Shown: positions 1 to 48,028 of the stretch, in pieces
How positions within the stretch are numbered: the first letter of the stretch is position 1
How the letters are laid out: the number at the start of each line of letters is the position of its first letter
Assembly: GCF_026571515.1 (NCBI RefSeq)
Contig: NW_026866679.1
Coordinates: forward strand, 1-64,000
Reading direction: 5' to 3'
DNA length: 64,000 bases
Source of the DNA: Ruditapes philippinarum
Lineage: Eukaryota
Notes under the pieces: generated by a model
Seen by the model: only the letters and a program-made list of their open reading frames with translations
Told to the model about the DNA's origin: nothing
Databases searched by the model: none
Made by a program: the position numbers and the translations under genes

Positions 1-3000
1 TTTACAAGCTAAATTCCATTCGTGAACACCAGCTGTTATGTTTTCACTCGTGGCTACAACACTCTTGAAAATTAAGCCAAGCTTTTATGGCAATAGTATA
101 TGCACACGTATATCATGACTAGCTTAAAACATCATCAAAGATACGTAATTGTTTTAAAATTTATTTATTAATAATTAATTTTAAAGTATATGAACACTAA
201 TAACCACTTTGCTTTCCTTAGAATGATTATAATGTTTGTTATAGCAATTTAAATATTGTTTAAGTTAAATTCAATCTAGTTATTCAAGTATACTAGTATT
301 CAAGACAATTAAATACGTTTTTATTAATAAGAACATTCATGTATTGTGATGTCTGTAATTCTAAACAACATCTGGAGATTTGCTAGTACTTGATGAAATT
401 ACAATTACAATACCTCGGGTGCCCCTCCTCACATTAATTCGGGCACGGGTTGGCTTCTTTGTAGAACCGTAACGCTTTGCAACATGAAAAAATCCTGATG
501 GGATTCGAACCTACAGCGCTAATGTGCGAATGATTTGAAGTCACTTTACTTAAAAACTCTCGGCCATGAAAGCCCCGTATAATTGGTCATGTTTTTGTAC
601 TAATTCACATCTACTTACTTTGTATTTCGAAATTGCCTATAATAAATATTGCTTGACAGAATATATATTTGAACGAATAAAATATTTGGCTTTCACAGTA
701 GTTGTCAAAGTTTAACATCTTATCTTAAAGCTGTCACTTAAATCGTCAGATTAATAAAAATGTCTGTAAACTCGTATTGTTTTCAAATCTTTATTGCAAG
801 AGTTCTCACGTAAGAGATTAAGTTAGATAACGTTGTATACAATTTAATATTTTGTTTCCAAGGAAAATTCTTCAAAAGTGGTATCGGGTCGTTACTGATA
901 TCAAACTTGTAAAAGCATCTTTTTGCCATATTTATTCACAATAATAATAATAATAAACATCACTAGACATATATTTTGAAATTAATTTTATCAAAACATG
1001 CTTGAGTCAGATGTCTTGGTTTTTGGAAAATTAATAAATTAAATAATAACATTACGTTTACACTTTATTTCCCGCCACCACGGCAAGCTAAACGGTGAAT
1101 ATAACGCATGCGCGTTGTAGGTGTCTCTTCTTAGCTTTTGCAGCTCGTAAAGGATATTGTGATAACCCAGGGACACAAACTGATCCTTGAAGACCGTTTA
1201 GCACATTATTATTATTGTGTGTACATGTTTGTGGTATTTTTAGTTCCTTCTTTCAGACCTTTTACAATTTGAATGGTTTAAAATATAACTTAAAATATTC
1301 TTTAAGGATTTTTTTTTCTATTTTGACAAAACTTGGATATGACAATAAAATATTTAAATTATGTTGTTTGGGTTTCTTTTGATGTTGTTGTTTTTTCATG
1401 AAATACCTTATACATTATAGTTAAGTTGCCTTTTTCTGATTTGAAGATATATATTAAATGCCAATATATTCTGATGTCATTCACAAAGAAAAAGAAAACA
1501 GAATATTTTGGAAAACAAATATGTCTATAAAACATTACTACAACACATTGAAACATTTGTCAGCCCGCTTGGCTCGTTTGGAAATGTAGTCTATTGGTTA
1601 TTATTGATAAAGATTTTAACAATGTGTGCATGGTACAGATTTCTTTGAACTCAGTATATAAATAACAGACGACAATTCAATATAAAACACCGGTTTTGAC
1701 TCACATTTTTTATGCATATCTTTTTTGTCTCGCTTTTTAAAATAGTTACAGTACGAAAGACAACTTGTATAAATTTTCCAAGTGACGGCTTTAATTGGAT
1801 GGATTGACGTACAAACGTTTATTTGAATTCTTTTACACTATATCCTTCAGAGTCAGTCACGTTCCTCAAATATTGCCTCCAGTTAAAGTGTATTACAATA
1901 ATTACATATATTTATAAGATAAATAAACTACAGGATATTTAATGGTGATAATTTTTTTTCTTCAGCATTTTTATGTTTATTCTTGAAAGAAACTAGATTT
2001 GCCGACAGCTAAACTTGTTGTTTTTTCTTCTTCTACAGTCTGAAGTTTCAATAAGACTCAACATATTGAGATCCTTGTCAAGCGCTTATAACACTCACAA
2101 CAAAAATTTTGGGCTAATGAATTTTACGTAAACAACCTTTTATAATTTAATTAAAACAATTGTCTAGGCATTACTTTGTTTGTTTGTTTAATGGCTGATT
2201 TCTTTTATTTGTTGTTGTTCTTGTTGTTGTTGCTTCTTTACAATTTATTTGTTATGTTATTTTGCAGAATATTTCTTGTTTAAAACATAACTGAAGCCAG
2301 ATTCGAGTACAGAAACACTTATTGATAAAAATTTATCGAAATATCTCATTCAAAAACTATTCACTAAATTGTATAATCAGATTGTCTGTGTATTTGACCT
2401 TTTATAAAGTACATCTATATAGATATCTTGCTGAGAAAGGATTTTATGCACAGCTTTGACTTGAGATTATGACAACATTTTTTGCATTGTATTTAGTTAC
2501 ACAACGAAATGTTTTACAATGCATCACAAATACAATTTACGATTTACGGCTTTTCTGTTCAATAAACTTTCAAAGTTGGTAGAAACTGTTATATTCTGTT
2601 GCTTGTCAGCGAATATTTACAATTTTATTGATTTCTGCATCTTTGGAAATACAAACATTGTTCACTGTGTATATTATCAAAACTGCTTTGCTCTCCAAGA
2701 CAAATATTTTTAATAGACTGGTTTTCTTCGGTTTTACAAGTAAATGTATAGTAAAAAATAAATAGTTGATGCTTTCTAACTAGCTTCATTTAATAGTTTA
2801 AAAACAAGTTACCTCAACAAAATGTATACACTACATTGCTTGATCATCTAACTTAAATTTAGTTTTATAATATTGATATTTATATAAATGAATGCTTTAA
2901 CGCGGTAAAGTAGGTTTCATTCATATAACTTGGTGATAAAATAATATACTTAGAATTTTATAAAGACCGGTATTGCACTTAAATTTTGTATCTGGTCTAA

Positions 3001-5990
3001 TATAGAAATTGTCGGTCATTGGTTGCAAGCTTTCAGGCCTACACATTTTAGATATATATAAATACAGCCATGCACTTTTTTGATTTAACAATGCTTGGTC
3101 GTCTCGATGACAGTCGGTTGAAAACATAATTGCTAAATTAATAATAACAAATGACGCACGTTCGAATTCTTAATTACACGCTCTGCCGGCAATTTATCAT
3201 AACAAATTGAACTTGACATTATGATATAAACTTATTATTTGTCCTAAATATTTAAAATCTCATTTGTTTGCTTAAACTAAATGCCTGTCTCCCTGTTGTA
3301 ATTGAAATTTGTATTGTAATTACTCTTGACTAGAGTTTAAATCGAAAGGAACAAACATTTATCCATGTTGAAATCTTAAAATTAATCTTAAATTTAAATA
3401 CGAGTTTTAATGTTCTTACTTCCCCCTTATAAAACAATTTAATCTTAATTAGAAACCTCAATAACTTTCCAATCTTAACATTTTAGCTTTTGATCCCTTG
3501 AGAAATTTGTTGTAGTTTAATAATAAACAGTACATTTGCTTTAAGACACGATCAAAAAGAAATAATAAAATTGTTTTTGCTCTTGGTGAAAGGTCTTTTT
3601 TTTATAAAATGTCGTTTTATCGCATGACACCCATTGTTTTTGTGTGTTTTTTTGTTAAACAGCCAATTATCTTTTCTTTATATTCACGTGTAATTTAATG
3701 TTTAATAGTAAAAAATAAGTGGTAAATTAAATGTTTTTGGTACAAGTTATCGATTAATAAAAATGGCAATAGTTGTCGTTTGATATAAACTTTTTGAAAC
3801 CCATCTAGGAAAATATTCAGTAGCCAAAGGCTCTCTTTATAACATTTTCCTAAATTCGATTACTAAACGTTCATACTAAATGTCAGCTCATATCAAACTA
3901 TTATGTGTTTCAGCTTTCTCATTTTGTGAAAAAGGTTTAATCTGTTTTTCTCTATTTAATCAGTTCTTCCATAAATAAATGCTCTGGGCGTCAAGTACTG
4001 ATAGCTGTAAATCTCTCGTACCATTTCGAGAAACTCGGACAGAACAACTCTCTTCAAAGCAAACTATCTTACAAAACTGATTAAAACAATGTTTCTAGAT
4101 AGTAAGTCATTCTCCTAGAACATCCATGACTCTTTCTTTAAAAGGCACGTTCATAATTCAACATTAAGACGTCAAAACTTTAATTTATCATGGAAAACAG
4201 AATCTGTAAATCAGTTAAAACTATCGACCATTGAGCAATGGTTAATATCTTAAAACAGGAAAGTCGAAACGATATATATGTCTTATAATTCACATGTTTC
4301 ACTACACATAAATAAAGATTTAATGTTTCAACGTTTTCATTATTTTTTGCTCTTCTCTAAGAATTAAATGAACATAGGTATGCAATTGATTTGTACGTTG
4401 TCCTTTTATGTACATTCTACTATTTCCTTCTTATCACGTGTTTAAATTAGATTGTTTTTGTTCAATCCTTTGTCAAACAAACATTAAGTAACCATGTTTA
4501 CTTTATTTGTTGATATGCATATCATCTGAAGAAAATAGTGATAACATTTGTGATATAGATATTAAAATGTTAACCGAAAAAGGTATTTTGATTTTCATTC
4601 AAAGTGTATCGTCAAAATATACGAATTGCCAAAATAATATAGAAAACAGAGCTGGTTTGGCTATATCACAGTGTTTAAAGAAGTCTACTTCTTGTTATCT
4701 CAAGAATGGTACAACTTAAAATATATAGGCTCTCAAGAAAATTACAGTGATCGGAAGTAACAATATCTTTATTTAATGAATGTTGTTTTGGAGTATCCTA
4801 TCTTATAAAAGTTTATTAAAATGCTATAAACCACTTTTAAACATCTGACTTTTATATCTTTTGAAATTTAATTTAAAGAAAAGAGACAGAAAGTAGACAT
4901 TGACTATTTCATTACCGTGATAAGACACTCGATTTAAACTGAAGGTATATTGTTCTTAGCTAGCTGGTAAATATCGGCAATATGACGACAAGATATGTAA
5001 GTACAACTCACTACAATACAGCTGTCAATGAAGTTGAAAGATATATAGTAGCTACTCTACCTTCTGAATGACCCGATTCTCTTAAAACATTATAATAATG
5101 ATTATTATAGAACTTCTAGTTAAAACTGTTATTGTCTTAATTTCAAATGTTACATTATGTAAAAATAAGATTATAACTTTCGTAAATTGATAGTGTTTAT
5201 TCTTATGAATTTAACTAGATCCTTTCAATATAAGAACCACTAAATCGTACTGTCTTTTATCAAAACACTGGGTCATATACGATTATAATTTTCGTAAATT
5301 TTTACCATTAGATCTTAAGAATATAAGGATAGCTTTTCAATTATTGTCTGACTAAGTTAAGAATAATTCTGAAAACCACGAACATATAGAAACTGACTGA
5401 GTTAGTGCTTCAGGTTGAAGTAAATGCTGTTTTAATTTTTTAAATATATCTTATTCAGATAATTTATCACCATTAATATTCTACTGATGCACTGGGTAAA
5501 CAGTTATCTTTAAAATCACTGATAATCTCATTTTAAGTTTTTTTCTAATTTGCAACTCAGTGTGACGTTTGTTATTCACATTAATTTGTCCCACGCAAAA
5601 CTTTTCTTTAAATATTTCATATTTATCGTAACTTTCCACGTTAAAGCTCATTTGTCATTATTGGGTTTCTGTTGGTTTTTTTATTTTTGAACATGTATCC
5701 TTTTGCAATATCAACTATAGCATAAAACATAAATTGCAAAAACGCTATATCAAGGCAAAGACATTTTATCATGATCGTAATTCTTCTATTATCGTGTTCT
5801 TTAAAAATAAATATCTTCTCAATTATACATAATTTGGCATACAATTGTATATATATGCAGCCTTTATTTATCATCATTATTGTTTAAATGTACTACTAAA
5901 ATATCTTTATGAAAGAAGCATATTTGTATATTTTCTGAAGATCAAATGGCCCATGTACACTAACACATTGCTAACAGGTTATAATCATAT
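1..5990 (+). repeat. Segmental duplication, copy A (probably extends left of the window)
   Basis: Collinear match to 8530-16365, e.g. ctaaattccattcgtgaacaccagctg at 9 and 8532. ORFs 4507-4719 and 14877-15089 are near-identical. Homology ends at ctaacaggttataat (~5985 and ~16361). Confidence 0.97.
413..577 (-). mobile_element. tRNA-derived SINE (RUDI-like), 3'-deleted paralog of 9456-9697
   Basis: Reverse strand reads ggggctttcatggccgagag (A box) ... gttcgaatccc (B box) ... gggcacccgag. Homologous to 57299-57563. Confidence 0.8.
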
Positions 5991-6413
5991 ATTTCTAGCT
6001 TTTGATGCAAAAGGAAATAGACATTGTTGGATTTTTGGTATGGCAAAATATAAGCGATTTTTTAACAAATTAGTATGCAATTATTTATTTACGAACTTTT
6101 ATGGCCAGCCATAACTTTTGGCAAAATGACATCAAAACATTTTAAAATACGTAAAGATTTGAGATTGTTCATGGGAATTTATTGTTTGATTGATATCTTA
6201 GAGAATTGCTACTCTTAGATGTTTTTTCCTTGTCTTTAAACATCGGTTTATGTCCGCAGAAATGATATCATACACGAAATAAAATAGATATCAAAGTTGA
6301 CGTTATCCATATAGTGTTATTATTTAGAATATAGAATTATAGCTTTGAAAAGATTTCTCTTGTATTCTTAAACGTTTGTTATATGGATGTTTGTTTGTAT
6401 ATTGTGTTTCATA

Positions 6414-6655
6414 TTAAGTCACACTGACCCTGTAAATGTACTGAGGCGACTTACCAGCATTATTTGTGGAAGAAGACTTCATGTGCCCCTTTGTGTATCT
6501 TTTAAGCACGAGCAAGCACCTGAGTAGAAAACCAATCTTCCGTAACCTAGCTACATTAAAAAATGCGAAGTGCCTAATGGGTTTCAAGCACGCAACGGTT
6601 AGGAACAATTGGTTAGAAATCGGCAAAACTTTAACCACTCGAACCCGCAGGCCCC
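6414..6655 (-). mobile_element. Degenerate tRNA-derived SINE (RUDI-like)
   Basis: ggcgacttaccagc...gaagacttcatgtgcccc...gcacctgagtagaa...ttaaccactcg is the reverse complement of the SINE at 57299-57563. Confidence 0.7.
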
Positions 6656-7299
6656 TTTACAGTTTTTGAGAATTTAGAGGGGTTTTATTTAAAATATCAC
6701 TTTACTGAAAACATTTTTATATAAAGTATAACAACAATAAACATAGTTTTTTCTAAGCATTTGTTTTTCAAAAACAACAAAACAAAAACGATAGATTATC
6801 TTGTATAGAGACTTAAGTCTTTTTTCTGAACCCTGTGACACTTATGTTACCAAAATGTCAAACAATCGTGTGTAGAGAAGTTGAAAAAAGATATCTAGAC
6901 GTAATTGACGTTTGTTCTCAGGGGAATTATAGATCAGCAAGTCTAGACGGGATAAAATCGTCATTATCTTCCGAAATTATACATAATTGTCTTTTGAGTA
7001 TATACAAGATTAAAGTGCCTGATACAATGATATTTCTACAGTAAAGTGTTCAAAACTGAAGTTTATTTTCTTACAAACGCTGCAAAAATACCAAGGGACA
7101 AATTGTACAAAATACCATTTATATATCGTATATACAACCATATTCTTATATTGCATAGCGATCTTTAATGCATTTTGCCTTCTCAATATTAATTAAATTA
7201 CTGTATTTGTTTATGTCATTTTAATTTTGATAAGGGTTTTATTTTTAGCAAACTATTATAATCTAAATTAGAAAAAACAGAATCCCCCAAAAAAGCTAA

Positions 7300-7465
7300 A
7301 CACGGCAAAATTGACAATGCTGCAGGTTCGGTTTGATTGAGCATTTGAGCCTGTTCATGGACGGTCCTCTAGCACCGGCTGAAGCAGATTTCAACATTTA
7401 AACACCTAAATGGTGAAATTTGAATTAAGAAACATCCGTACATGTGTTCATACGGCGTTATCATG
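7300..7465. repeat. Dispersed repeat fragment (Penelope-associated family, also at 49980-53200)
   Basis: cggtttgattgag...gagcctgttcatggacgg...ctagcaccggct matches 51040-51220. Confidence 0.75.
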
Positions 7466-9455
7466 TTTTGTACAAAAATCTACGCAATTCTAGTAACTGT
7501 GCGTTTTTTCTTCTTCGTTTTTCTTCGATAATATATCATCATAACAAGAATCATACAATTGTCTGCTAAATTTACTTAAAAAATCTCTTAGAGGTCCGTA
7601 TGATTCAATACAAACGTGACGTAATTTGTTGTCTGAGAGCTGTATTATTTTGAGATATTTCTGTCTCTAATCAATACATACAACTCGCTTAGCCTTTTAA
7701 AGCCAGGCACATAAATTTGAATTTAAAACAGCAAGCATCCTCTTGATGTATATGTGCATATTATGTGTTTGATGGTGGAACACGATTTTTCACTGAAGCA
7801 AATAACATTAACTTATAACATATATGTAGAACAATAAATCACAATCAAATGAGGGTCTTTTTCACATAATCAAAAAGCGGTTAGGTTAATATTCCGGCAT
7901 AATTACAGTTTTATTTATACTGTTAATTTCATTATTGAATTGCATGGTATATCATTTGATTACTTGCTTTTATAGTAGATAGAATAATTATATTTTGATA
8001 AATCAAGAGGAGCTGAGCTATCATTAATAAAAATGATATGTCATAAATGGATGGAATTTCTGCAGAAATATACAACGCGTACGTTTAATATGCATTATTG
8101 TAGCAAAAGCGTTTGCACATATCACGTTAAAATTTATCAGATGAGCCACAATATTTATAGAAAATAAACTTTTGGAATAATGTACAAATTTTCATGTCTC
8201 ATTAGCGACTGATTATGCTGTATTTATCATTATATTTTTACTGTATGACTAACTGAGTAAGGGCTAATTTTGCATATTCTTAACTTATTTTGTTAATTTT
8301 TGTAGATTTAAATGTTTTTTTGCACTGGTTGATCACTTGACAATTATATCAATTTTATTACATTTAATTCATTTTAATAAACATGGACGTGCTACATAAA
8401 CATTGTGAAGCCATAATTATATGAAGTCAGGAAGGAAGTACAGTGCGTAAAGTGGCAATAGTAACTTTGTACCACTACTTTAAAGTCATGTTATGAACAG
8501 ACCAATTGTTTCGTTTGCATAAAAGAACAATCTAAATTCCATTCGTGAACACCAGCTGTTATGTTTTCACTCGTGACTACAACACTCTTGAAAATTAAGC
8601 CAGACTTTTATGGCAATAGTATATGCACACGTATATCATGATTAGCTTAAAACATCATCAAAGATACGTGATTGTTTTAAAATGTATTTATTAATAATTA
8701 ATCTTAAAGTATATGAACACTTGTAGCCACTTTGCTTTCCTTAGAATAATTATAATGTTTGTTATAGCAATTTAAATATTGTTTAAGTTAAATTCATTCG
8801 AGTCATTCAAGTATAGTATTCAAGACAATTTAATACGTTTCTATTAATTAGAACATTCATGTATTTTGATGTTTGTAATTCTAAACAACACCTGGAGATT
8901 TTCTAGAACTTGATAAATTTACAAGCGATTAAATATATATCATCAATAAGCAACACTGTTTTTCCTTTGTAATAGGCAACTGTTTTGTTTGGGTGTTCTG
9001 TTGCTGTTGATGAAACAAATATGACAATTTAAAGATTCCTTAATGTTTTTTATATGGTCTTTAGACTTTGTAACATTTCTTCACAAAATCATTTTTTCTA
9101 CGTTTCAATCGAATGAAAATTTTTAACCAAGCATTTTTTATTCCTTTTTAAAATATAGTTTTTGTAATGGATAATTTTCAGTTAAAAGGTTCAAATCACT
9201 TGATAATTACAGGTAGTATAACCTTACGAGTTGGAAGTAGATGTACTAGAATTATTTTTTAACTTAGAAACTTAGATTAATTTTGCTTTGCATGTTCCAA
9301 TTACATAATTTTAGTATAATACTGAAAATGATTATGTTGACAAAAAGGTAAAGACTGAACAACATCTGAAGATTTGCTAGTACTTGATGAAATTACAAGC
9401 GATTATTTAAATATCATAAATAAAGCAACACTGTTTTTCCTTTGCAATTGGCAAC

Positions 9456-9697
9456 TGTTTTGTTTGGGTGTTCTGTGGCACCAACGCAAAAAGGTCATAT
9501 GGCGACTTACGAGCTTTATTGGGGAGGAACAACTCAGGTGCCCCTCCTCACATTAATTCAGGCACAGGTGGGCACCTTTGTAGAACCGTAACGCTTTGCA
9601 ACATGAAATAATCCTGGTGGGATTCGAACCTACAGCGGTTATGTGTGAGTGGTATAAAATCACCTTACTTAAAAACACTCGGCTATGAAAGCCCCGT
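9456..9697 (-). mobile_element. tRNA-derived SINE (RUDI-like), near full length
   Basis: Reverse strand has an A box (tagccgagtg), a B box (gttcgaatccc), and the body gggcacctgag...gtcgccatatgacc shared with 57299-57563. Confidence 0.85.
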
Positions 9698-10772
9698 ATA
9701 ACAGGCCATGTTTTTTGTTCTAATTAACATCTACTTACTATGTATTTCGAAATTGCCTATAATAAATGTTGCTTGACAGAATATCTATTTGAAGGAATAA
9801 AATCTTTGGCTTTTACAGTAGTTGTCAAAGTTTAACATCTTATCTTAAAGCTGTAACTTAAATCGTCAGATTAATAAAAATGTCTGTAAACTCTTAATGT
9901 TTTTAAATCTTTATTGCAACAGTTCTCACGTTAGAGTTTAAGTAAGATAACGGAATACAATTTAAAAAAAATTTCCAAGGAAATTCTTCAAAACTGGTAT
10001 CGGGATGTAACTGATATCAAACTTGTTGAAGCATCTTTTGCCATATTTATTCACAATAATTGGTTTTGTGAACATCACTAGACATATATTCTGACATTTA
10101 TCAAAACATGCTTGAGTAAGACCTCTTTGTTTTTGTAAAATTAAAAAAATTAAATAATAACATTACGTTTACACTTTGTTCCCCGCGGCCACGGCGTGAA
10201 TATATGTGAATATAACACATGCACGTTGGAGGTGTCTCTTCTTAGCTTTTGCAGCTCGTAAAGGATATTGTGATAACCCAGGGGCGAAACTTGATCCTTG
10301 TAGACCGTTTGTTGTGTGTACATGTCTGTGGTATTTTTAGTTCATTCTTTCAGACCTTTTACAATATGAATGGTTAATATATTCTTTCAGGAATTTTTTC
10401 TATTATGACAAAACTTGGATATGACAACAAAGGATTTAAAATATGTAGTATGGGTTTATTTTGATGTTGTTGTTTTTTTTAATGAAATACCTTATACATT
10501 ATAGTTAAGATGCCTTTTTCTGATTTGAAGATATATAATAAATGCCAATATATTCTGATGTCATTCACAAAGAAAAAAAAAGAATATTTTGGAAAACAAA
10601 TATGTCTAAAAGAACATTGCTACAACACAATAAAACATTTGTCAGCCCGGTTGGCTCGTTTTGAAATTTAGTCTATTGGTAATTATTCATATAAGAAATC
10701 TATAAAGATTTTAACAATGTGTGCATGGTACGGATTTCTTTGAACTCAGTATAGAAATAACAGATGGCAATT

Positions 10773-11380
10773 AGTTTAATAATATTTTATTGCAACTATA
10801 TAATACATGTCAGATATGAATAACACACAAAAAAGAAACAAATGTAAGTATAAGTACATGTGTATATAGTGCAAATGGGTAGGGCTACAAGTTATTACAA
10901 CATTAGCAACAGCCCTTCCCACAAAGTCTAGCTTTTATATTACATATTTTCCGGATAGTTACAAGTAATTGATTTGTCAGTGGAAGTGAGAAAAAGAAAA
11001 GAAAGAAAAACCGCACACATCCGCAAGAATTCCCTACGCTGTCTGACCCATGAAATTGACAAGACAAAACAGAGATGATGTGTGATAGTATCACAGCGAT
11101 AATTAGAAATCGAATTCGGCAATTATTTTACGTCATAATTACTTTTCGTACACGTGTGTCAACAAGGCAATGGCATATTTTACATATAATAAATTCTACA
11201 TATTGTTTTGGATTTTAATAATCATTGACAGGTGGAGATAACGGTCAGTTGAAGGAAGAAAAGTATTTACATGTATATTTATCGGTACCACTTAAGAATA
11301 AGAATATATGTAATGAATAAAGGCTGCTGTATTTGTTTTTTCTTCTCTCCTCTTTTTTTCCTTCTGATTGGAAGGCAATT
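10773..11380 (-). mobile_element. ~600-bp segment absent from copy A; possible 3' end of a LINE
   Basis: Bounded by direct repeat ggcaatt (10766-10772, 11374-11380). Reverse strand ends in caataaaatattattaaact, resembling a CR1/L2-type 3' tail. No recognisable RT peptide. Confidence 0.45.
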
Positions 11381-13668
11381 CAATATAGAACACCGGTTTT
11401 GACTCGCACTATTTTATGCATAGCTTTTTTGTCTCGCTTTTTAAAATAGTTACAGTACGAAAGACAACTTGTATACATTTTCCAAGCGACGGCTTTAATT
11501 GGATGGATTGACGTACAAACGTTTATTTGAATTCTTTTACACTATATCCTTCAGAGTCAGTCACGTTCCTCAAATATTGCCTCCAGTAAAAATGTATTAC
11601 AATAATTACATATATTTATAAGATAAATAAGCTACAGGATATTTAATGGTGATAAATTTGTGTCATTTGCTTTTTTTTTCTTAAGCATTTTTATGTTTAT
11701 TCTTTAAAGGACTAGATTTGCCGACAGCTAGAATTGTTGTTTTTTTTCTTTTTTTACGCTCTGAAGTTTCAATAAGATTTAACATATTGAAGTCCTTGTC
11801 AAGCGCTTAGAGTGTTATAACACTCACAACAAAAATTATGGGCTAATGAATTTTATGTAAACAACCTTTTATAATTCAAGTAAAACAATTGTCTAGGCAT
11901 TACTTTGTTTGCTTGTTTGTTTGTTTAATGGCTGATTTATTTTTCTTTTTTCTTTTTTTGTTGTTGTTGTTGTTGTTGTTTCGTTACAACTTATTTGTTA
12001 TGTTATTTTGCAGAATATTCCTTGTTTAAAAAAATAAGTGAAGCCAGATTCTACTACTGAAACACTTATTGATAAGAATTCATCGAAAAAACTACTCACT
12101 AAACTGTATTATCAGATTGTCTGTGTATTTGACTTTTTTATAAAGTACTACTATATAGATATCTTGCTGAGCACAGCTTTGACTTGAGATATTGACAACA
12201 ATTTTTACATTGTATTTAGTTACACACCGAAATGTTTTACAATGCATCACAATTGCAATTAACATAAAGATAACGTCTTACAGCTTTTCTGTTTATTGAA
12301 CTTTCAAAGTACATGTAGTTAGAAACTGTTATCTTGAATAATTACTATTCTGTTAGTTGTCTGTGAATATTTACAATTTTATTGATTTCTGCATCTTTGG
12401 AAATACAAAAATTGTTCACAGTGTTATATTGTCAAAACTGCTTTGCTCTCCGAGACAAATATTTTTATCATAGGCTGAATTTCGTGTGTTATACAAGTAA
12501 ATGTACACGTACAGTAAAAAGTAAATATTTGATGCTTTCTAACTAGTTTCAGCTATTAAAAATCAAGTTACCTCAACAAAATGTATACAGTATATTGCTT
12601 AGACATCCAACTTTAGTTAAGTTTTTTAATGTTGATATTATAATATATGAGTGCTTTTACACGGTAAACGTGGTTGCATTCATATAAATTAGTAATAAAA
12701 TCATATTTTGTATTTCCTAAAGCCCGGTATTCCGCTAATTTATTATGTCTGGTCCAATATAGAAATTGTCGGTTAGGATTAAAGACCATTGGTTGCAAGC
12801 TTTCAACTCTGATAGCCTACAGATTTTAGAAATGAAAAATAAATACATTCATGTATTTTGTTTACTCTACAATTCTTGGTCGTCTCGATTGCAATCGTTA
12901 AAGATTGCTTTGGGTAAGTTAATAATAACAAATGACACACGTCCAAATTTCTTGATTACATGCAAATTTATCATAACAAATTAAACTTGACATTATGACA
13001 TAAACTTATTCTTTTTCCTAAATATTTAAAATCTCATTTGTTTGCTTAAACTAAATGTCTGGCTCCCTGTGGTAATTGAAATTTGTGTTGTAATTACTCT
13101 TGACTAGAGTTTAAATAAAAAAGAACAAACATTTATCCATGTTGAAAAAATAAAATTAATCTTAAATTTAAATACGATTTTTAATGTTCTTATTTCCCCC
13201 ACACAAAACAATTTAATCTTAATTAGAAACCTCAATAACTTTCCAATCTTAACATTTAAGCTTTTGATCCCGTGAGAAATTTGTTGTAGTTTAATAATAA
13301 ACAGAACATTTGCTTTAAGACACGATCAAAAAGAAATAATAAAAATTGTTTTTGCTCTTGGTGAAACTTCTTTTTTTATAAGATGTCGTTTTATCGCATA
13401 ACATCCATTTTTTTATACAGCCAATTATTTTTTCTTTATTACCACGTGAAACTTAATCGCAGAAAGCGTGTGTTTAATTGTAAAAAATAAGTGGTTAATT
13501 GATTGTTTTTGGTACAATATATCGTTTAATAAAATGGCGATAGTTGTCGTTTGATATAAACATTTTGAAACCCATCAAGGAAAAAATTCAGTAGCCAAAG
13601 GCTCTTTTTATAACATATTTTCCTGAACTCGATTACTAAACGTTCATATCAAATGTCAGCTCATGTAA

Positions 13669-14258
13669 CACCCCAGTTACACAGAGCCATCGGTGATTGA
13701 TCGGTAGTTTTTTTAGCCAAATTATGAAGTGAACCGATGACAACGTATTTAACACCGATATCACCTATTGATCACCTGTTTTCCACCTATCAACTACTAT
13801 TGGGGAAAGATAAGTTTCATCGGTGAAAAATTACCGATTGGGATTTTTAAACACGTTTAAAATTCTCGATCGGTGAAAATATCTTATAAATAACCGACAG
13901 CAACGTATATCACGAGATATGCAAGCTCTTAATCACTGATATCGCCGATCGGACAAAGATGACCAAATATGAATCACCGACCATATCTGACGGAAAGTGT
14001 TTAACCACTGATGACTAGCTATCAACCACCGATTAATCTGCGTTACGCCCGATTTAGCTCCGATTTACAAACGATAAAACCGACTGTATTTCAGCATTTT
14101 TATCACCGATCCAACCCCGTTTGAGTTTGCTTTCTGTCACCGATGGCCGTTTACACAGAAAACCAGAAATAAAATCACGCATGACAACCGATCATAACAG
14201 CGAGTAAATTTAAAATTAAATGACCGATTGGGGACCGACCGTCTGTGTTACTGGCCCC
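13669..14258. mobile_element. MITE / non-autonomous DNA transposon, PIF/Harbinger-like
   Basis: Absent from copy A at ~3893. Imperfect ~35-bp TIRs (ccagttacacaga...atcggt / accga...tctgtgttactgg). Flanked by taa and tta. Many internal accgat/atcggt motifs. Confidence 0.8.
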
Positions 14259-16369
14259 TTAGACTACTTGTATTACATGTTTCAGCTTTCTCATTTTGTG
14301 AAAAAGGTTTAATCTGTTTTTCTCTATTTAATCAGTTCATCCATAAATAAATGCTCTGGGTGTCAAGTATTAATAGCTATAAATCTCTCGTACCATTTCG
14401 AGAAACTCGGACAGAACAACTCTCTTCAAAGCAAACTATCTTACAAAACTGATTAAAACAATGTTTCTAGATAGTAAGTCATTCTCCTAGAACATCCATG
14501 ACTCTTTCTTTAAAAGGCACGTTCATAATTCAACATTAAGACGTCAAACTTTAATTTATTTATGGAACACAGAATCTGTAAATCAGTTAAAACTATCGAC
14601 CATTGAGCAATGGTTAATATCTTAAAACAGGAAAATCGAAACGATATATATGTCTTATAATTCACATGTTTCACTACACATAAATAAAGATTTAATGTTT
14701 CAACGTTTTCATTATTTTGCTCTTCTCTAAGAATTAAATGAACATAAGTATGTAATTGATTTGTACGTGTTCCTTTTTTGTACATTCTACTATTTCCTTC
14801 TTATCACGTGTTTAAATTAGATTGTTTTTGTTCAATCCTTTGTCAAACAAACATTAAGTAACCATGTTTACTTTATTTGTTGATATGCATATCATCTGAA
14901 GAAAATAGTGATAACATTTGTGATATAGATATTAAAATGTTAACCGAAAAAGGTATTTTGATTTTCATTCAAGGTGTATCGTCAAAATATACGAATTGCC
15001 AAAATACAATAGAAAACAGAGCTGGTTTGGCTATATCACAGTGTTTAAAGAAGTCTACTTCTTGTTATCTCAAGAATGGTACAAGTTAAAATATATAGGC
15101 TCTCAAGAAAATTACAGTGATCGGAAGTAACAAGATCTTTATTTAATGAATGTTGTTTTGGAGTATCCTATCTTATAAAAGTTTATTAAAATGCTATAAA
15201 CCACTTTTAAACATCTGACTTTTATATCTTTTGAAATTTAATTTAAAGAAAAGAGACAGAAAGTAGACATAAAGTAATTGACAATTTCATTACCGTGATA
15301 AGACACTCGATTTAAACTGAAGGTATATTGTTCTTAGCTAGCTGGTAAATATCGGCAATATGACGAAAAGATATGTAAGTACAATTCACCATAATACAGC
15401 TGTCAATGAAGTTGAAAGATACATAGTAGCTACTCTACCTTCTGAATGACCCGATTCTCTTAAAACATTATAATAATGATTATTATAGAACCTCTAGTTA
15501 GAACTGTTATTATCTTAATTTCAAATGTTACATTGTGTAAAAATAAGATTATAACTTTCGTAAATTGATAGTGTTAATTCTTATGAATTTAAGTAGATCC
15601 TTTCAATATGAGAACCACAAGATCGTACTGTCTTTTATTCAAAACACTGGGTCATATACGATTATAATTTTCGTAAATTGTTACCATTAGATCTTGAGAA
15701 TATAAGGATAGCTTTTCAATTATTGTTTGACTAAGTTAAGAAAAATTCTGAAAACCACGAACATATAGAAACTGACTGCGTTAGTGCTTCAGGTTGAAGT
15801 AAATGCTGTTTTAATTTTTTAAATATATCTTATTCAGATAATTTATCACCATTAATATTCTACTGATGCACTGGGTAAACAATTATCTTTAAAATCACTG
15901 AAAATCTCATTTTAAGTGCTTTTCTAATTTGCAGCTCAGTGTGACGTTTGTCATTCTCATTAATTTGTCCCACGCAAAACTTTTCTTTAAATATTTCATT
16001 TTTATCGTAACTTTCCACGTTAAAGCTCATTTGTCATCATTGGGTTTTTGTTGTTGTTGTTTTTTTTTGCACATGTATCATTTTGCAATATCAATTATAG
16101 CATAAAACAATAAATTGCAAAAATCGTTATATCAAAGCTTTTCCAAAGACATTTTATCATCGTAATTCTTCTATTATCGTGCCCTTTAAAAATAAATATA
16201 TTTTCAATTATACATAATTTGGTATATATCTGCAGCCTTTAGTTACCATCATTATTGTTTAAATGTACTACTAAAATATCTTTATGAAAGAAGCATGTTT
16301 GTATAATTCCTGAAGAGCAAATGGCGCATGTACACTAACGCATTGCTAACAGGTTATAATTATAATTTA

Positions 16370-17548
16370 AATAGCAGAATATACAGGATATTTGTTTGTT
16401 TGTGTGTAAGATGAAATTTTATTTCATTGAGTGGGCTTTAAAAACAGTATTCTCACGAGTGGCGTAGCCACGAGTGAGAATACTGTTTTTAAAGTTCACG
16501 AGATGAAATAAGATTACATCTTACACAACAAACAGACAAATTTTCTTTTTATATTATGCTTAAAAACAAGTTAAAACGAAATTTCCATAATTTTAACGTT
16601 AATATTAAAATCTGTTTTCCCCATTGAGATTCCCATTTAGACGGAATTTCTCATTAAAAACAAGAAGTCTTGAGCTGAAAAATAAGTCCGTCAATCAAGG
16701 TTAAATGACAGTGATATTTATTCATTTTATTAAAAAAATATGAATGATCGCTTGTTTTAATAATAAAAACAAACAATTCTTGTAGGAGAAAAAGTCCAAC
16801 CATCCATCCATATTTCTGTTACTTACTGCGAATTTATATTAGACCTGGCTTTGTAAAATGTAAGCGGCAGCCATTTTTTAAAGTTGTGTATTTCATGGGA
16901 GGAAAATAATTGTGTAAGATTCAGAGGGATATGATTTGGATTTGTTAGTCATACACCTTTTTAAAAGAAAGAAAACTTATTTGAGGATTGTAACAGACAA
17001 AAAATAAGTGATGACAGAATTGAAAACATTCAGAAAAGGAGCTAGGAAAATGGAAAACTTGGAAGCTTGTTAAGGAACGCTGGGTTGTTTTACTTATTCT
17101 ACGAGTGATGGCTGTCAATGCTTTTCAATTTTTCATAAAGCATACGGCAGTTTTTGCTCGTAGGATACTCTAATATGCCCAAATGTCATCAAGAGCAGTT
17201 TTGCATGGGGAAGGAATGTATTTTTAGACTGTAAAAACGAAACAAAAAAATTAAGAGACGAAATTTGGTGATTGGAATTTGAATAAATAGAAGTAAGTTT
17301 TCTCTCTTTATTACTTTTGACATTTAAGTTATTTATCTATTTCAGCTTTGCTATTTCTTTTAACAGCCTGACATAGTCAGAATTGTCAGTAAAAATAAAA
17401 TTGAGGTACCACATGGGGAAAATCTTAAAAAAGTAGTTTCGTCATTGAAAAAAGTGAAATTATATTTTGATAATTTTCACTGTGAAATTATCAAATATAA
17501 TTTTCACGGATAAATCAGTAATCCACTGAAAAGCATAAAATAAAATAA
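16370..17548 (+). mobile_element. Non-autonomous hairpin element, Crypton-like
   Basis: ~150-nt fold-back at 16390-16541 centred on cacgagtggcgtagccacgagtg. Second hairpin at 17454-17507. ttttatattatgctt (~16547) is roughly inverted to aagcataaaataaaa (~17531). Crypton label is from memory of mollusc repeat libraries. Confidence 0.7.
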
Positions 17549-20500
17549 TTTATTCTGTTTACGTACAATATTCATGTCGGTTGAAGATACTTTCTGTGAT
17601 TCTACTATTTCAAAAATCGACCATAAGATCATACAGTCTACATTTTTCTCCAAAATAATTTATTACATATTAATTTTATAGTTTTATGCCCTCAAAAAAG
17701 AATGCTATACAGTGTCTTACTTTTTCATTTTCAAGGATAAAAATATATATTGATTACTACATACTAAGTGTAGTTGACAACATGTTTTACTATTTATAGA
17801 ACTTTATATTAAGATTTGAAAGTTATTATTCGAGTTATCTTTGAACTTTGTCTCAGATTAACGCATATAATTGAACCTTGTCATTAACCACCTCTTTAAC
17901 CACCTCTTTCACAAGTGATCTAAAAGTCAGAAACAATTATTACAACTTCAAGAAACGCAAAATAACTAATATTTAATTTCACTTAATGATAGATAACCAA
18001 CATCTTGCTAAAAACATAATATTTTGCACTTTTTGAAAGTACTATGAACACAATCACTAGAAAAATGTTGTTTGGGTTATTATCAAAGAATCAGAGCTAC
18101 AATTTATCTGAAGTAATAATACATTTTAATGTCTTATTTTCTCCTCCCGCGCAATTCAATTTCAGTTTAATTAGAAAATGTTATAGCATTACAAATTCAA
18201 ATTGTCTGATTTCATTTTTCTAATGGGAAATACGTTATTATTTCAATCACGTGTATTGTCTATAACGAGGTTATATTTTCACAAAAAAAAACAAAAATTT
18301 TTAATAGTTATAATGTTAAATAAAACGTTGTTACCAATATCATCTTGAAATTGTTAATTACCAAGAATGTACATGTGAAAAGTATATTTTTAATGTACTT
18401 GTCCAAAATAATGTTGTGTTCATCAGTATAACAAGGTCAGTGATGATCATATTCGATCATGGTTGACAATGATACGTGCCATTAATGCACTTGTTTGTAT
18501 GGTTGAAACATGGTTAGATATGTTTAAACCATGTCAAAACATGTTATAACATGTATAAAACATGTTTCGATCATATATTTTCCACTGTAATAGAGAAGCA
18601 GATTTCCAAAATATTCAATTTAAAAGTCTATTTTTAGCTCCTGTGGCCTACTCATGCATCAGACTGGCACCATTTATAGAGAATTTGTAGAGCATCACCT
18701 AGGATTATTTTTGTGATCACATGGGATTTAAAGTGTGTGTTAATACACATGTGTTTGGAAATCCATAGGTTTGTGATCAGCATTCATGTCTTCATCGTCA
18801 TATAGAAATCATTAAATCAAATGTCATGAAGTTGGTATAAATAATATTTCATAATACAACATAGCTTTTTGTTTTACAAAAAAGAACCTTACTTGACAGT
18901 CTTTAACTTAAAATGTAATGCGATGGTATGCCAAATTAAAGGGAACAACAAGTGTGTATGTTTTGTTATCACAAAGTAATGTCTCAGTCACGTTAACATC
19001 TGATTCAAATGTTATGGAAAAATACTTTTAAAAGGTACAGAAACGAAAGTGTTTAAGACATACATAGAACAGAAGAATGAAAGTAGTTAATATAATCACT
19101 TTCAACATGGCTGTGTGTATGAATATATTTATAGACTGTAATGATTATTCATTTATTCAAGAAAAGCTTAGCAATGAATCAAACGTTAACATTGTACGTT
19201 TTTCTTCAACTCCCAAAAGAGAGAAAAAGAGAACCTGAATTTAAGATAGCGATGTTGACGCAAGCAACTTTATTCAATAGATTATTTGTCTAGCTTGTTA
19301 ATGTTCGGTCAATACGAAGACAAGATAAGTAAATCAACTCTGTTTTGTACAATTCTTCTAAATTACATCTGTCAATAGAGAGACTTGTGTGTAAGACTTT
19401 CTACGGGCGGGTTATGGTGGTGTGACAGGCTGTATTTCTAGAAGTATACCCTTCCGTCAAATTGAGCCTAGAGTAGTTCAACAGTATAGAATAAAATTCT
19501 CATCATAAATTGAAATGTTTTTTTTTATATATTTTGTACAAAAACACGAAGCTAAATGCGATTATATTAGATAAAATTGTTAAGTTTAAGTTATCAATGC
19601 AAAGGTTTGCAAAGTGCAATATCTGTAATATCTACAGTGTAACAGGTATTAAGCAATATTGACTTTGTTAAAACAGTACATAATAATGTGGTCTCTGTCA
19701 AGTTTTTTTTTGTTTAGTCATGTAATCTGCTGCTTATTTTTAATTATGTGACTGATTAATTGATTGGACAGTTAGCCAACTGAATCAGTACTATTACCTT
19801 TTATCTTAAACATAACAATAGTGAAAATAGTTGATCCAAAAGTTGACCCTTTTAAGATAGTACAAAATAGTAAAATTGGAAATGTCGCAGACTCGGTTGA
19901 TTGAGACAGTGGTACTATAATAAATCCTATGACTGATTGCTTTTACAGATACACGTACAAACTGTAAATATAACCAAAAAAAAGATAAAAAGTATTTTAT
20001 AAATTTTCACATTGATATCGGTTTATTCCTAATAAAATGGGAATATGTAATGCGAACATGAATAAATGTTTTTATTTAAGATTTAAGATCTACCAGACAT
20101 TTTTCTATCATAATCAGCTATTATTTGGTGCCATTTACAATATATACTTTAATGCGGTATAAATATTTTAGACAAGAATTCGAACATGCCTAATCATTCC
20201 ATGTCCCAGTCTTTTCTTTCTTTTTTATAATCACTTTTAAATTAATAACAACAATGACTGTTTTACAACTTTTATATATACTGTATTGTGGCCATAAACC
20301 TAAAAAAACTCATAACGATTTACAAAGTGCTACGTATCTTTAACAAAACGGTATGACTTGAACAGATTTCAGCTAACAGATAATAAAACTAGTCACAGGA
20401 AAAACAGATAATTTAAACGAAATTTCCTAACATAATTCGAGCATTGTCTTAAGAAACAAACAGCCTCTTATGTTTGTTATTCAATATCAAGGCGTCTTAA

Positions 20501-21364
20501 GGCAATTTGTAAACGGATTCCAGTATCGTTTCACCAATTTTATCGATTATAACTGTGTGAGTAATATGTGTCATCCAGAGAGGCCTTTTAGTTGCCTTGA
20601 TTTTCGGTTTATATCACCATAGTGCAGTAAAAAAGACGCCACAAAAGCTGTCAATCTAAATACCAATCTTTATTTGTTTTGTTAAGTTGTTTTGTGTTGT
20701 TGTTGTTTTTTTCCATTGAAATACGTTGTAATCAGGATATTATATTGTGATAAAGATTTTTATTTATCTAAATTGCTGGCTCAGTTTGAGCTAGGGTTAA
20801 TGGTAAAGTGCAACATCCCTCTCGCCCCCTAGCATCGGCTTACGCGGTATTTAGTGAAATTTGGGGAACTCAGTTGTTTTTCAAGTTCACTATCGCATTA
20901 TAGTTAAACATGATATATCTTATATAGTTTGCTTATGTAAAACTAATGTATAACTGTTAAGGTTTACGTGCTGACACTATGGCGTATATATTGTTAAATG
21001 ATAGGTCATTTTTTGTATTAAGATTTTAAATGCAAAACAAGCAATTCTGTAACGTATAAGTTCAGCTATTTAATAACGTTTTATTTACAATTTAGTTTTA
21101 AGTCAACGTGCGATTTTGATTTTTTTTAGTCTGCGCACACAAGTATTAATAATAACAAAATTTTACCAAAACGTAAGAATAAGAAAAAAAATCAATTTAT
21201 AGAAATTAACACGATTAGGCCAGATTAATCATCCGGTTTAACTTCAGACAAAGTCTTTATTTCTCTAGTAAGAACTTAAGAAATGTAAATTATCTTGATA
21301 AAGACAACAACATAGTACGATGACTTTATGAATATTACGTAGATCCGGTAAAAAGGAAATGGTT

Positions 21365-21460
21365 TTTCCATAACAATGATCAAATATTAAGTACAAAACA
21401 ATTTCCAATATTTAGTAAATGAACCGCCAATTTTCTTCTGACGAGAGCTTCAGATAAAAT
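21365..21460 (-). promoter_or_regulatory. Orphan copy of the conserved upstream module (no intact exon downstream)
   Basis: ttccataa...tccaatattt (21404)...ccaatttt...tgacg (21439) aligns with 27361-27450, with the same 35-bp offset between halves. Confidence 0.6.
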
Positions 21461-23660
21461 GTTCTCTCGTGGAATATAAATTATGCCCCAAAGGATTAAC
21501 GGTAATTTAAGATACATTGTCTGACTTTACCTTTTAAAAATATTGCGATGAACTGTCCCTTCTTATGGTAACCCTCTAACAATGATTTATTCATCAGTTG
21601 ATCATTGTGGTTTTTGAAGCCAGATAATTTAGATACATTTAGTTTCTCTTTTTTTAAAATGCTGTGCGTTAAAATACTTAGTAAACTTTAAAAAAAGTTT
21701 ACATATAAAAGTACATACATGTCTTATCATTATAAAACCATATAAATGTAAGACAATATATGGTAAAATTGATTATTTCTACAATTACAATGGACAAATA
21801 CAGTGATATTGATTCATTTATGATTAAGATATAAAATAGTTTGTAACAACGCATCAAAACAGGTTTTAAAAATGATAGTAAGCTCACATATTCCATATGT
21901 ACCAAATGTAATTGTAATCAATCTTAAAACGCTCTTACTACAATAATTATTACATTCTATTCAAGATGTGATTTTCTTCTCAATTACTTACCTCACATTT
22001 TAAATATTATTTTTAGTTAATTTAATTCGTATGGGAATGTTTTTTTATTTAAAATGTGTATTTGAAGGAAAACCTTTCTTTAAAAAAATCATGTCAAATG
22101 AGTAAAAGTTATGTAAGTAATTTCACATTTCAGTTCTAAGATAGGCTCAAAGTTTTGTTTTCCTATTAGGAGAAAGTAGTTTATTTATTTATAACATTCT
22201 ACAGAAATTTCAGCAAAATCAACAAAATCTTAATTCAAAGAGTATACTGGATAAAACGATTTAAGGCATGACCCTGACGTTTACCGACTTTAACCAGGAA
22301 AACAGTGATCATAATTAAATCTTTCACGCCAAATTTCTATGATTTACAAAATTTAACATTAAGACGTCACTCTAATTAATATATAGAACACAGTTTATAC
22401 AATGAAATATATCTACCAAGATGAAATGTTTAATTTCTCATAACAGCAACACTAAAAACACATTCTTTCATTCATATCAAAGAACAATGAAGAATATATT
22501 TCAACTGTAAAAGGAATGTTCAATCTATTTTGAATAGCCAACTTGTGGTAAACCGATCCCATACCATTTTCATTGCCTTTTTATCAAGAACGCGGATCCA
22601 ACAAAGGGGATATTAATCCACATTGAGCTTTATTATGATGATTTCTGTACTAGCGGTAATATTTTAAGATGAATATCATTGATCTTACTCCCAAATGCAT
22701 TAACTTGTACGCCAACATTCAGAAATTTGCCATACACTTTGATTTCTTATACGTAGCACCGTGAATGAACTGATCTTATATGACTAATAAGATAAAATAA
22801 GATCGCTTGTATTTCATTAGATTCCCTTTCTTTTCTCTGAAGCGGCAATAAATGTACCATAAAGACGGAATACTGTAAACATTGTTTGTATCTATTCGTA
22901 CACATTTTATATAGATAGGCTACTGAAAGTGTTCTTGTGAATATTTCTTCCAAGGAAATTGTTTTAAAGACTTGCGCTAAAGTGTCCATAAACCATTAAA
23001 CAAAGGCTTTTTAGCCAGTAGCAATTGCACGTTTTCTCCTTGTTTTTGTTATAACCGAAACATAAATCTTAAGATTATACAAATGTTCTATAACAAGCAT
23101 CGCACCTTTTCAAGTTTTAAATATGTATACCCAATATGTAATTGCAAAAGAAAAAAATCTCATACAGTACATACACATTGCAAATAGCCATGTGCTTACT
23201 TTGTTAGTTCTTATAATTATAAAATTATAAACTATGACTAAGAACACCAAATACTTTTGTCTACCATTTTTTCAAAATAAAGAAAGGGTTAAACAGTATT
23301 CAAGTCAAACGGAGTATGTATGGGTCTTTCACAAATTAGATATTTATTAAAAAACATAACATTAAAATAATGTAACAATTCTAAAAGCTAATAAACAAAT
23401 AATTAAACTTATCATGACCTATGTCAATATTCAGATAACACATTTGAAGTACATGTATCAGGAGCGCTTTTCTTCATTTCATTATAATTTTTTTCTTAAA
23501 TACGTTTTTAAAAATGTTGTTATTTTCTCCTTTTTAAACAGTTATCCGGACAGAACAGACTTTTGATGTCCATTATCAATGTCGTCTTTTAATTGTTAAG
23601 TTAAAATAGTTTAAAAGAAGAAAAGGGAATTCAAAACAAAATGATAAGGCTTCTACTTAC

Positions 23661-23760
23661 CAATAGGTATCGTCAGACCCTCGTTAGATGCGTTCATTAT
23701 TCCAGAGAGAGTACTTAAATAAAGTACAATTAATATGCCAGAAAATATTCTATAAGTCAT
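23661..23760 (-). CDS. Alternative first coding exon A: MTYRIFSGILIVLYLSTLSGIMNASNEGLTIPI-G (signal peptide; probable ionotropic glutamate receptor)
   Basis: aaaATG start, 33 codons + 1 nt, hydrophobic core, phase-1 donor G/gtaagt. Paralogous to four other exons. Confidence 0.85.
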
Positions 23761-24198
23761 TTTATTTACACTAGATTTGTAACATATATTTAATCTAATT
23801 CAAAGTTTGGATATTCTTTTGACGATCAATGCTCTCTGCAAATCATATGCATATGTTTATAAAATATTACATATCCAACAACACGAGTGCCGATTTATGA
23901 CTAATTTGTTTAGCAAAGGCCAATGTTGTGTCTAATTGTCTGGACTTGCAGCATGCATTCTACGTGCACTGACTGAATAAGACCTTAACAAAATCCAACC
24001 TTATTTGTCACAATAATCCCTATGCTATTTTCAAACAAAGCCTCTTTGTAAACATTATACCTTGACAAGAAACTTCTTGTTTAACCGTTAATGCAAACAC
24101 TCAAAGGACAAAAACTTAAAACAATTTTTGTTTAACATGATCTCATAGGAATGTTGCAGCTTAAGAATAAGATGAAGTACTATAGCAACAGAAAGAAA

Positions 24199-24285
24199 TT
24201 TCCATAAGAAAGAGAAATGTATTGTTACTAAAATCCGATATTTGGTTAGAGAATGTCCAAATTTCATTTGACGCAGATTTTCGTA
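24199..24285 (-). promoter_or_regulatory. Conserved upstream module of exon A
   Basis: tccgatatt at 24234 and tgacg at 24269; 474 bp upstream of the ATG. Confidence 0.65.
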
Positions 24286-26785: not shown

Positions 26786-26885
26786 CCATTGGTATAGTCA
26801 CTCCTTCATTAGATGATTGTATTAATTCAGGATATGTGAAACAATAACACACTACTAAAAACAATACTAAACCATTCCAAGACAT
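26786..26885 (-). CDS. Alternative first coding exon B: MSWNGLVLFLVVCYCFTYPELIQSSNEGVTIPM-G
   Basis: acaATG start, 33 codons + 1 nt, hydrophobic core, phase-1 donor G/gtgagt. Confidence 0.85.
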
Positions 26886-27360
26886 TGTGATGAAATACTC
26901 TTATCTTCTGTGATTGTTTTACATACAAATGTGCAGCATGCTGATAATACAGGAGTCAGATGTAGTAATTTTGATGTTTAGCTATTAATTAAATATTAAC
27001 ACTTTCGTGGTCCGTAAGCTTTTTTCATTTAAACGTTGTTTACTAGTTGTTAATCACAGACGCAAATACATCATTGTTAGAAAATATATTAAAGAACTTA
27101 TGCATTAGATCAAATGACTGCATGATGTCAAATCTTTTATCATATGTTTACTTAAATGCATTGCTTACAATTCACACGATTCTTTAAGACAAACAAAATT
27201 ATTACCAAAAAACTAGAACACTGTCAATCCAAGTACTATCACATTAAAATCGTCACACATTACCGTCCATCATATGTGAGAATTCAGAAACATATCTTAT
27301 ACAATATAGAAATGTCACAGCCTTCACAATTAGAAAAATAGTCGGAATTACTGGAAGGCA

Positions 27361-27450
27361 TTTCCATAATAGACAGAATGTTTAGTAACTAAAATCCAAT
27401 ATTTGGACAGAGAATGCCCAAATTACGACTGACGCTGATTTCTGTGAAAT
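27361..27450 (-). promoter_or_regulatory. Conserved upstream module of exon B
   Basis: tccaatatt at 27395 and tgacg at 27430; 510 bp upstream of the ATG. Confidence 0.65.
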
Positions 27451-29288: not shown

Positions 29289-29388
29289 CAATTGGTATGG
29301 TCACCCCTTCATTAGATGACTGTATTAATCCAGGATATGTGGAAAGACAACACACTACTAAATATAGCATTAAACCATTCCAAGACAT
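29289..29388 (-). CDS. Alternative first coding exon C: MSWNGLMLYLVVCCLSTYPGLIQSSNEGVTIPI-G
   Basis: acaATG start, 33 codons + 1 nt, phase-1 donor G/gtgagt. Synonymous differences from exon B (CAA/CAG, GGA/GGG, ACT/ACC, TTG/CTA) and no indels. Confidence 0.85.
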
Positions 29389-29726
29389 TGTAATATAGAA
29401 TAGCTTCATATAAAAAATTGCAATAAGCTAAACACAGGCTAAGAAGTTGGGTTTTTTGTTAAATGTTTTATGTTAAACTATTTAATAATATTTTTTACTC
29501 TTTATACATGGGCGTTACATCACATGCGTTTGTAATTTCAAATATCTTTAAGAAGCAAACAAATCTAAAACACAGGAATACTGTCAATGTAATGAACACG
29601 AATTATCCCGTTTGAGATGTCACAAATAACTATCCATCATTTGAGAGAATAAAGAAGCATATTTTTATCCTACATAAATGTCACAGCTATAACGATTAGA
29701 AAAAAGTCAGAAATACTGGGAAGGCA

Positions 29727-29812
29727 TTACCATAATAGACAGAATGTTAAGTAACTAAAATCCAATATTTGGACAGAGAATGCCCAAATTACATCTGACG
29801 CTGATTTCTGTG
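29727..29812 (-). promoter_or_regulatory. Conserved upstream module of exon C
   Basis: tccaatatt at 29761 and tgacg at 29796; 373 bp upstream of the ATG. Confidence 0.65.
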
Positions 29813-47925: not shown

Positions 47926-48028
47926 CAACAGGTATCGTTAATCCTTTATATGATGCTTGTTTAACTCCAGAACAAATAAAAAAACTCAAACCCAAAAACG
48001 CATGTGTGAATAAAGACTTATAGATCAT
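47926..48028 (-). CDS. Alternative first coding exon D: MIYKSLFTHAFLGLSFFICSGVKQASYKGLTIPV-G
   Basis: aaaATG start, 34 codons + 1 nt, phase-1 donor G/gtaagt. Corresponds to the first half of ORF-track entry 47843..48028. Confidence 0.83.

Follow-up and report, generated by a model that had tools for sequence, protein, structure and literature searches.

The locus studied here raises the question of which gene a lone leader exon belongs to. The window, that is, the whole 64,000-nucleotide stretch of Ruditapes philippinarum DNA that was analysed, begins at base 1 of its contig (C15166). Its minus strand carries, at 23760-23661, 100 nt running from an ATG (33 codons and one nucleotide) to a phase-1 GTAAGT donor. 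This exon reads MTYRIFSGILIVLYLSTLSGIMNASNEGLTIPI-G, then GTAAGTAG, the glycine codon being split by the intron. The original prediction had described a signal peptide followed by TIPI-G, and had proposed an ionotropic glutamate receptor (iGluR) of the AMPA/kainate type as the host, with receptor guanylyl cyclases and class C G protein-coupled receptors as alternatives. Its reading of the exon holds, with a predicted signal peptide judged from hydropathy only, and, as it had also stated, no exon 2 was found in the window.

The exon belongs to a series. A generic scan of the window, based on an ATG, a hydrophobic stretch, and a phase-1 GTRAG donor, returned six hits, five of which are minus-strand paralogues ending G[LV]TIP[IVM]-G, with S, G, T, I, and P invariant near their 3' ends (Table 1). 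The motif-plus-donor pattern is found five times on the minus strand, never on the plus strand, and never in 200 Markov-resampled windows, a control that is partly circular because the pattern was derived from the same five exons. Genome-wide, a looser pattern gave eight matches (three for the reversed control), namely the five window exons and three non-coding matches on C7190, C1231, and C10272, which were rejected as leader exons and attributed to chance. At the level of sequence, the exon at 23661-23760 is confirmed as real, encoding a hydrophobic leader (a predicted signal peptide) in a layout common to its four paralogues.

Table 1. Features of the window, with positions counted from its first base
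Feature	Position	Strand	Remarks
Leader exon under study	23661..23760	-	Predicted signal peptide and ~10 mature residues ending GLTIPI-G; donor GTAAGT, phase 1
Paralogous leader exon	26786..26885	-	Ends EGVTIPM-G; donor GTGAGT
Paralogous leader exon	29289..29409	-	Ends EGVTIPI-G; donor GTGAGT; recent duplicate of 26786-26885 (87% DNA identity)
Paralogous leader exon	47926..48028	-	Ends KGLTIPV-G; donor GTAAGT
Paralogous leader exon, most distal	59602..59719	-	Ends DGVTIPI-G; donor GTAAGT
Conserved non-coding block	24198..24280	-	~440-520 nt upstream of the ATG of the 23760 exon; candidate promoter element
Copy of the conserved upstream block	27360..27441	-	Before the 26885 exon
Copy of the conserved upstream block	29726..29807	-	Before the 29409 exon
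Intronic spacer	5988..7929	-	Full-length homology to C8334:1-2149 only; link to the body of the receptor gene
Tandem duplication within the intron, first copy	5995..16368	.	~10.4 kb
Tandem duplication within the intron, second copy	1..5994	.	Truncated at the end of the contig; would resume in C8334:1-2149 after ~0.6 kb missing
Window part of the putative first intron	1..23660	-	No coding exon detected

The window also contains repeats. An inverted-repeat, MITE-like element with 103-nt arms (25438-25680) occurs in many copies and is very abundant in aligned contigs. A tandem array of ~166-nt units (54082-55044) is found on C1257 and C2463 too, and a dispersed repeat of ~1.2 kb (16378-17544), 93% identical to a copy on C4131, adjoins the duplication boundary. 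The longest open frame (55270-55884, minus strand) encodes 204 Ser-rich residues in a GC-richer repeat zone, and is probably transposon-derived.

Transcribed sequences and proteins were searched for the missing part of the gene. None of the sequencing runs listed as containing the sequence is registered as RNA. No splice from a leader exon to exon 2 was seen in the reads or contigs compared with window 23300-29800. Four presumed-RNA contig sets on this interval gave no donor-crossing among the contigs listed, and were swamped by the repeat at 25438-25680; on 25750-29800, for which two contig sets were used along with two runs of raw reads, one run yielded 24 reads, and there were no joints. 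Neither result is counter-evidence to splicing. The presumed-RNA sets cover 23699-24038 with four contigs, at a depth of 2-3. On the protein side, the leader peptides matched none of 833 candidates, no full-length database protein starting with one of these N-termini was found, and a metagenome pattern scan gave 0 matches. A 35-residue ENA entry (P0001), a read-through relative that ends EGVTIPL-G and is 47-56% identical to four window exons, suggests that a leader exon of the window type is present in another species or haplotype.

As these RNA and peptide searches were without result, the glutamate receptor genes of the genome were surveyed as hosts. Six are AMPA-like by similarity, located on C8334, C1257, C4381, C9846, C719, and C2463. 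One exon of this genome is 100% identical, across the part that aligns, to a protein entered under Ruditapes philippinarum. The Gly-splitting intron had been read as a sign of AMPA receptors. It is indeed found in AMPA-type genes, but exon 2 begins inside the leader glycine in six iGluR genes, one of them outside the AMPA-like group, and this feature cannot fix the subtype. The genes on C9846, C719, and C2463 were rejected as hosts, each having one adjacent leader exon of its own. C4381, whose own first exons were not found, was dropped, since its orthologues begin ...DPM[KN]IG, unlike the window exons. C1257, the first candidate, has no leader exon on its contig; the N-terminus of its orthologue led to four on C4131, bases 3-3103 of which overlap the C1257 end at 80-93%, and it was dropped as well. 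This second AMPA-type gene (C4131:40365-78426 and C1257:45921-86558, both on the minus strand) is an orthologue of XP_053398486.1, and its four tandem leader exons end Y-x-[GV]-R-[IV]-P-[IV]-G. Broken stray copies of its exon 3 lie at C14036:77435-77632 and C2407:270669-270867.

Another set of leader-bearing exons is located on C4269, where two opposite-strand groups (31476-85295, plus; 248965-302961, minus) comprise twelve exons that match the beginning of the ANF_receptor domain. They may be another variable-first-exon array or tandem genes, and the two groups may be haplotypes. The eight that were read encode a hydrophobic leader and ~110 domain residues, of the receptor-guanylyl-cyclase type, in one exon, followed by a GT donor. 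These cyclase-like exons, the only ones compared for first-exon layout, differ in layout from those of the window.

The gene on C8334 offers a better fit. Six leader exons of the same build (50763-70557), ending [DE][GA][IV][IV]VPI-G, precede a single exon 2 (71928-72077) that starts, after the acceptor ag, with GT GCA ATT TTT, that is, G-A-I-F; no other iGluR exons were seen in C8334:1-71 kb. When joined in silico to the 13 shared exons, all eleven leader exons (five from the window and six from C8334) give open frames of 791-804 aa. The modelled proteins are 49% identical to the clam glutamate receptor 2-like proteins XP_053398486.1 and XP_052792110.1, of which C1257, not C8334, is the orthologue. 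Pfam domains are found for the amino-terminal part (PF01094, ANF_receptor, at 73344-73598, E 9e-6) and the channel (PF00060, Lig_chan, at 85894-86088 and 87639-87815). The modelled frame contains GQYG, APLTITYDR, SYTANLAAF, SGST, and LLES; we take SYTANLAAF to be the gate motif, and the Tyr, Pro-x-Thr...Arg, Ser-Thr, and Glu to be glutamate-binding motifs.

Subtype was approached by similarity. Against the PDB, the best 60 of 253 hits of the M1-M2 exon are all GluA-type or unnumbered 'Glutamate receptor' chains, none being named as kainate or NMDA, and exon 2 gives weak matches, mostly to GluA3/GluA4 (E 0.16-1). In a tree of 17 of 19 rows and 158 columns, with no vertebrate rows, C8334 branches from an open fork and falls outside the supported clade that unites three other genes, its sister relation with C1257 being left unsettled; because of this open fork, the AMPA-type assignment rests on similarity. 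The C8334 gene is most likely an AMPA-type ionotropic glutamate receptor, and the most likely host of the window leader exons. One donor is GC, which counts against the array model. The assembled sequence puts the shared exon immediately ahead of M4 (C8334:88945-89042) out of phase, with the M4 exon left intact; this could be an assembly error or a null allele of this gene copy. The pore tip reads M-L-Q-G both in this gene (85738-86084) and in the Mercenaria orthologue of C1257 (C1257:50297-50554), and M-Q-Q-G in the C4381 orthologue. The leucine presumably stands at the Q/R-site position, where it could alter ion permeation.

In the three groups of leader exons (window, C8334, and C4131), ATG, frame, and donor are kept in 15 of 15. 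In the last 13 alignment columns, pN/pS (computed from pooled pairs, which are not independent) is 0.27 in the window, 0.22 in C8334, and 0.24 in C4131, and reaches 0.71-0.85 in the signal part. In profile comparisons, the window exons make up their own sequence group, no nearer to those of C8334 than to those of C4131 (cross-scores ≤4.8 bits). No further leader exons were found in C15166:1-164000, C8334:1-103699, or C4131:1-120000, the remainder of these contigs being covered by the exact pattern only.

The window and the receptor gene are connected by the spacer listed in Table 1. It aligns with C8334:2149-1, running off the start of that contig, and the orientation is such that the minus strand of the window continues into the plus strand of C8334. 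In a genome search with the spacer, for which 40 of 5,096 candidates were scored, the C8334 start was the only other full-length match, the remaining 38 of 41 rows being a 200-bp internal repeat. Within the window, positions 1-5994 copy 8527-16368, with the spacer in between. The alignment with C8334 breaks off only a few bases from ~5994, where the duplication has its breakpoint. Base 4 of the window matches 8527, at which the duplicated block ends, and C8334 has the appearance of the second copy's tail; it has no sequence corresponding to window 1-5987. Identity across the link is 78% with gaps and 90.4% with gaps excluded, four blocks of the in-window copies being 91-97% identical, and homopolymer compression does not raise the gapped value (77.7%). 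Of 179 mismatches, 140 equal a neighbouring base in C8334 and 52 do so in the window, a pattern that a noisy contig end would produce. Two further queries were of no use for the link: window 1-3500 matched the window only and was discarded, and 3900-16300 was swamped by a repeat.

From this 2 kb of noisy end sequence, we infer that C15166 joins C8334, with ~0.6 kb in between; allelic overlap of the two contigs would place the exons in the same neighbourhood. The first intron, up to exon 2 at C8334:71928, would then measure ~96 kb for the 23760 exon and 132 kb for the farthest leader exon. Through this putative join, the proposal of an AMPA/kainate-type host gains support and can be narrowed to the AMPA type, and exon 2 of C8334 would be the phase-1 acceptor exon starting G-[AGS]-[IL]-F that the original prediction had suggested looking for. 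Receptor guanylyl cyclases and class C receptors lose ground as alternatives, the linked contig carrying iGluR exons.

Taken together, it is quite probable that the 23760 exon is one of five tandem leader exons at the far end of a set of eleven alternative first exons of one AMPA-type gene, whose shared exons are on C8334. Each leader exon would be transcribed from its own promoter, which makes up to eleven promoters for one receptor, and its transcript would bypass the remaining leaders to be joined to exon 2 at its single phase-1 acceptor. After signal cleavage, all transcripts would yield one channel subunit, differing only in the ~10-13 residues at the N-terminus, ahead of the amino-terminal domain. 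The likely purpose is to regulate separately the site, timing, and amount of receptor production.

The sequence upstream of the leader exons is relevant to the proposed promoters. An 83-nt block is shared, at 81% identity, by three of the five window exons (Table 1). Searching the window and 1.23 Mb of retrieved loci gave no other match to it; a genome search with the block returned only itself, and this search is insensitive, because two known copies were missed. The leader exons are accompanied by duplicated upstream stretches as long as 367 nt. Alternatively, the exons could be internal cassettes, used one at a time and selected by splicing, downstream of a common promoter and non-coding exon. 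Some acceptor-like sites within 400 nt of an ATG score 7-8 (7.9 at -300 for the 23760 exon), and a search of 600 nt showed no TATA box for three window exons out of five; both observations are compatible with cassettes. Nevertheless, with a weak acceptor model (13 training sites), the sites upstream of the ATGs score 1.9-8.3, within a background of median 5.5 and 90th percentile 8.8, and the upstream blocks are duplicated along with the exons. Besides, three low-depth presumed-RNA contigs, which could be DNA or pre-mRNA, are unspliced across the ATG and 105-137 nt upstream. The cassette arrangement is, on this evidence, very improbable.

Two other explanations concern the link and the state of the gene. 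The window exons could be alternative first exons of a different receptor gene, for example an unassembled iGluR paralogue, in which case the C8334 match would be a paralogous duplicate. The gapped identity of the link and the separate sequence group formed by the window exons would agree with this, as would the fragmentation of the assembly, which counts 15,874 contigs and in which genes are split across contigs (C1257/C4131, C4381). It remains, however, that the spacer has no other full-length homologue, that its orientation and the position of the breakpoint fit a join with C8334, and that the exons fit no other AMPA-like gene found. A separate host gene thus appears unlikely. Somewhat harder to accept is that the exons do lie upstream of the C8334 gene, but as silent relics, or that the gene is broken by the frameshift before M4, so that little or no receptor is made. 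Inferred introns of such length, the out-of-phase exon, and the lack of a junction read point that way. Yet all five window exons have kept ATG, frame, and donor despite a pS of 0.55-0.60, with the low pN/pS of their mature part given above, the 13 shared exons ahead of the break are open and have kept the channel motifs, and C8334 contains other low-quality stretches. A single array of probable alternative first exons of the C8334 gene is the reading retained here.

Compared with AMPA receptors GluA1-4 and the clam glutamate receptor 2-like proteins, the C8334 gene is alike in its amino-terminal domain, its ligand-binding and channel exons, its SYTANLAAF motif, and its best PDB matches, which are GluA-type or unnumbered chains (among the best 60 of 253). 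It differs in having eleven candidate leader exons, where the known genes have one, and a leucine at the presumed place of the Q/R-site glutamine. Distant 100-nt leader exons are easily missed, which explains incomplete database models: four models of related clam receptors (P0004, P0005, P0006, and P0008) start inside or after exon 2.

Alternative first exons of comparable types are known in other families. In the available sections of the work on the IgLON genes Lsamp, Ntm, and Opcml, promoters 1a and 1b are described as driving first exons that encode alternative signal peptides (PMC5288359). The likeness lies in alternative promoters (putative in the clam) and alternative signal-peptide first exons on a neural surface protein. 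On the same partial description, IgLON genes have two promoters and identical mature N-termini, whereas the clam genes have 11 and 4 tandem paralogous exons, differing mature residues, and an ion channel as product. Clustered protocadherins, UGT1A, and GCNT2 are described, in the consulted parts of another study, as having tandem paralogous first exons, each with its own promoter and a conserved upstream motif, ahead of constant exons, and as growing by duplication (PMC1885805). The clam leaders are likewise tandem paralogues, on the same strand and in the same phase, before one constant set, six directly on C8334 and five via the inferred join. As far as these excerpts go, protocadherin, UGT1A, and GCNT2 variable exons encode whole domains, in contrast to clam exons that encode only a signal peptide and ~10-13 residues. 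The same excerpts call the Ugt1, Gcnt2, and Ugt2a organisation vertebrate-specific (PMC1885805), and the clam array would be a mollusc case.

A literature search, with most subscription papers outside its reach, found no report of variable-first-exon arrays on glutamate receptors. In the text accessible to a term search, first exons are not mentioned in an oyster iGluR survey (PMC10642201), an Aplysia transcriptome paper (PMC9282427), or a paper on AMPA receptor evolution (PMC13520880). Tandem variable first exons are already known; what would be new is to find them, as arrays of leader exons, on two genes for ion channels in a mollusc, although some of these isoforms may stand in database annotation already.

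A tentative and rather doubtful extension is that two receptor genes of fast synapses in clams (with 11 and 4 leaders) have acquired promoter arrays in the manner of protocadherins. Promoter choice would be made by the neuron, and the differing residues at the N-terminal end of the amino-terminal domain would tune assembly, trafficking, or trans-synaptic binding. Cell-type-specific subunits would thus be obtained from one AMPA receptor gene, in parallel to the flip/flop splicing of vertebrates. According to the accessible part of a 2026 study, AMPA receptor alternative splicing remains to be studied in its invertebrate species (PMC13520880). The arrays of 11 and 4 leader exons on two clam AMPA-type genes point to the multiplication of promoters as one way in which invertebrates may diversify their AMPA receptors.
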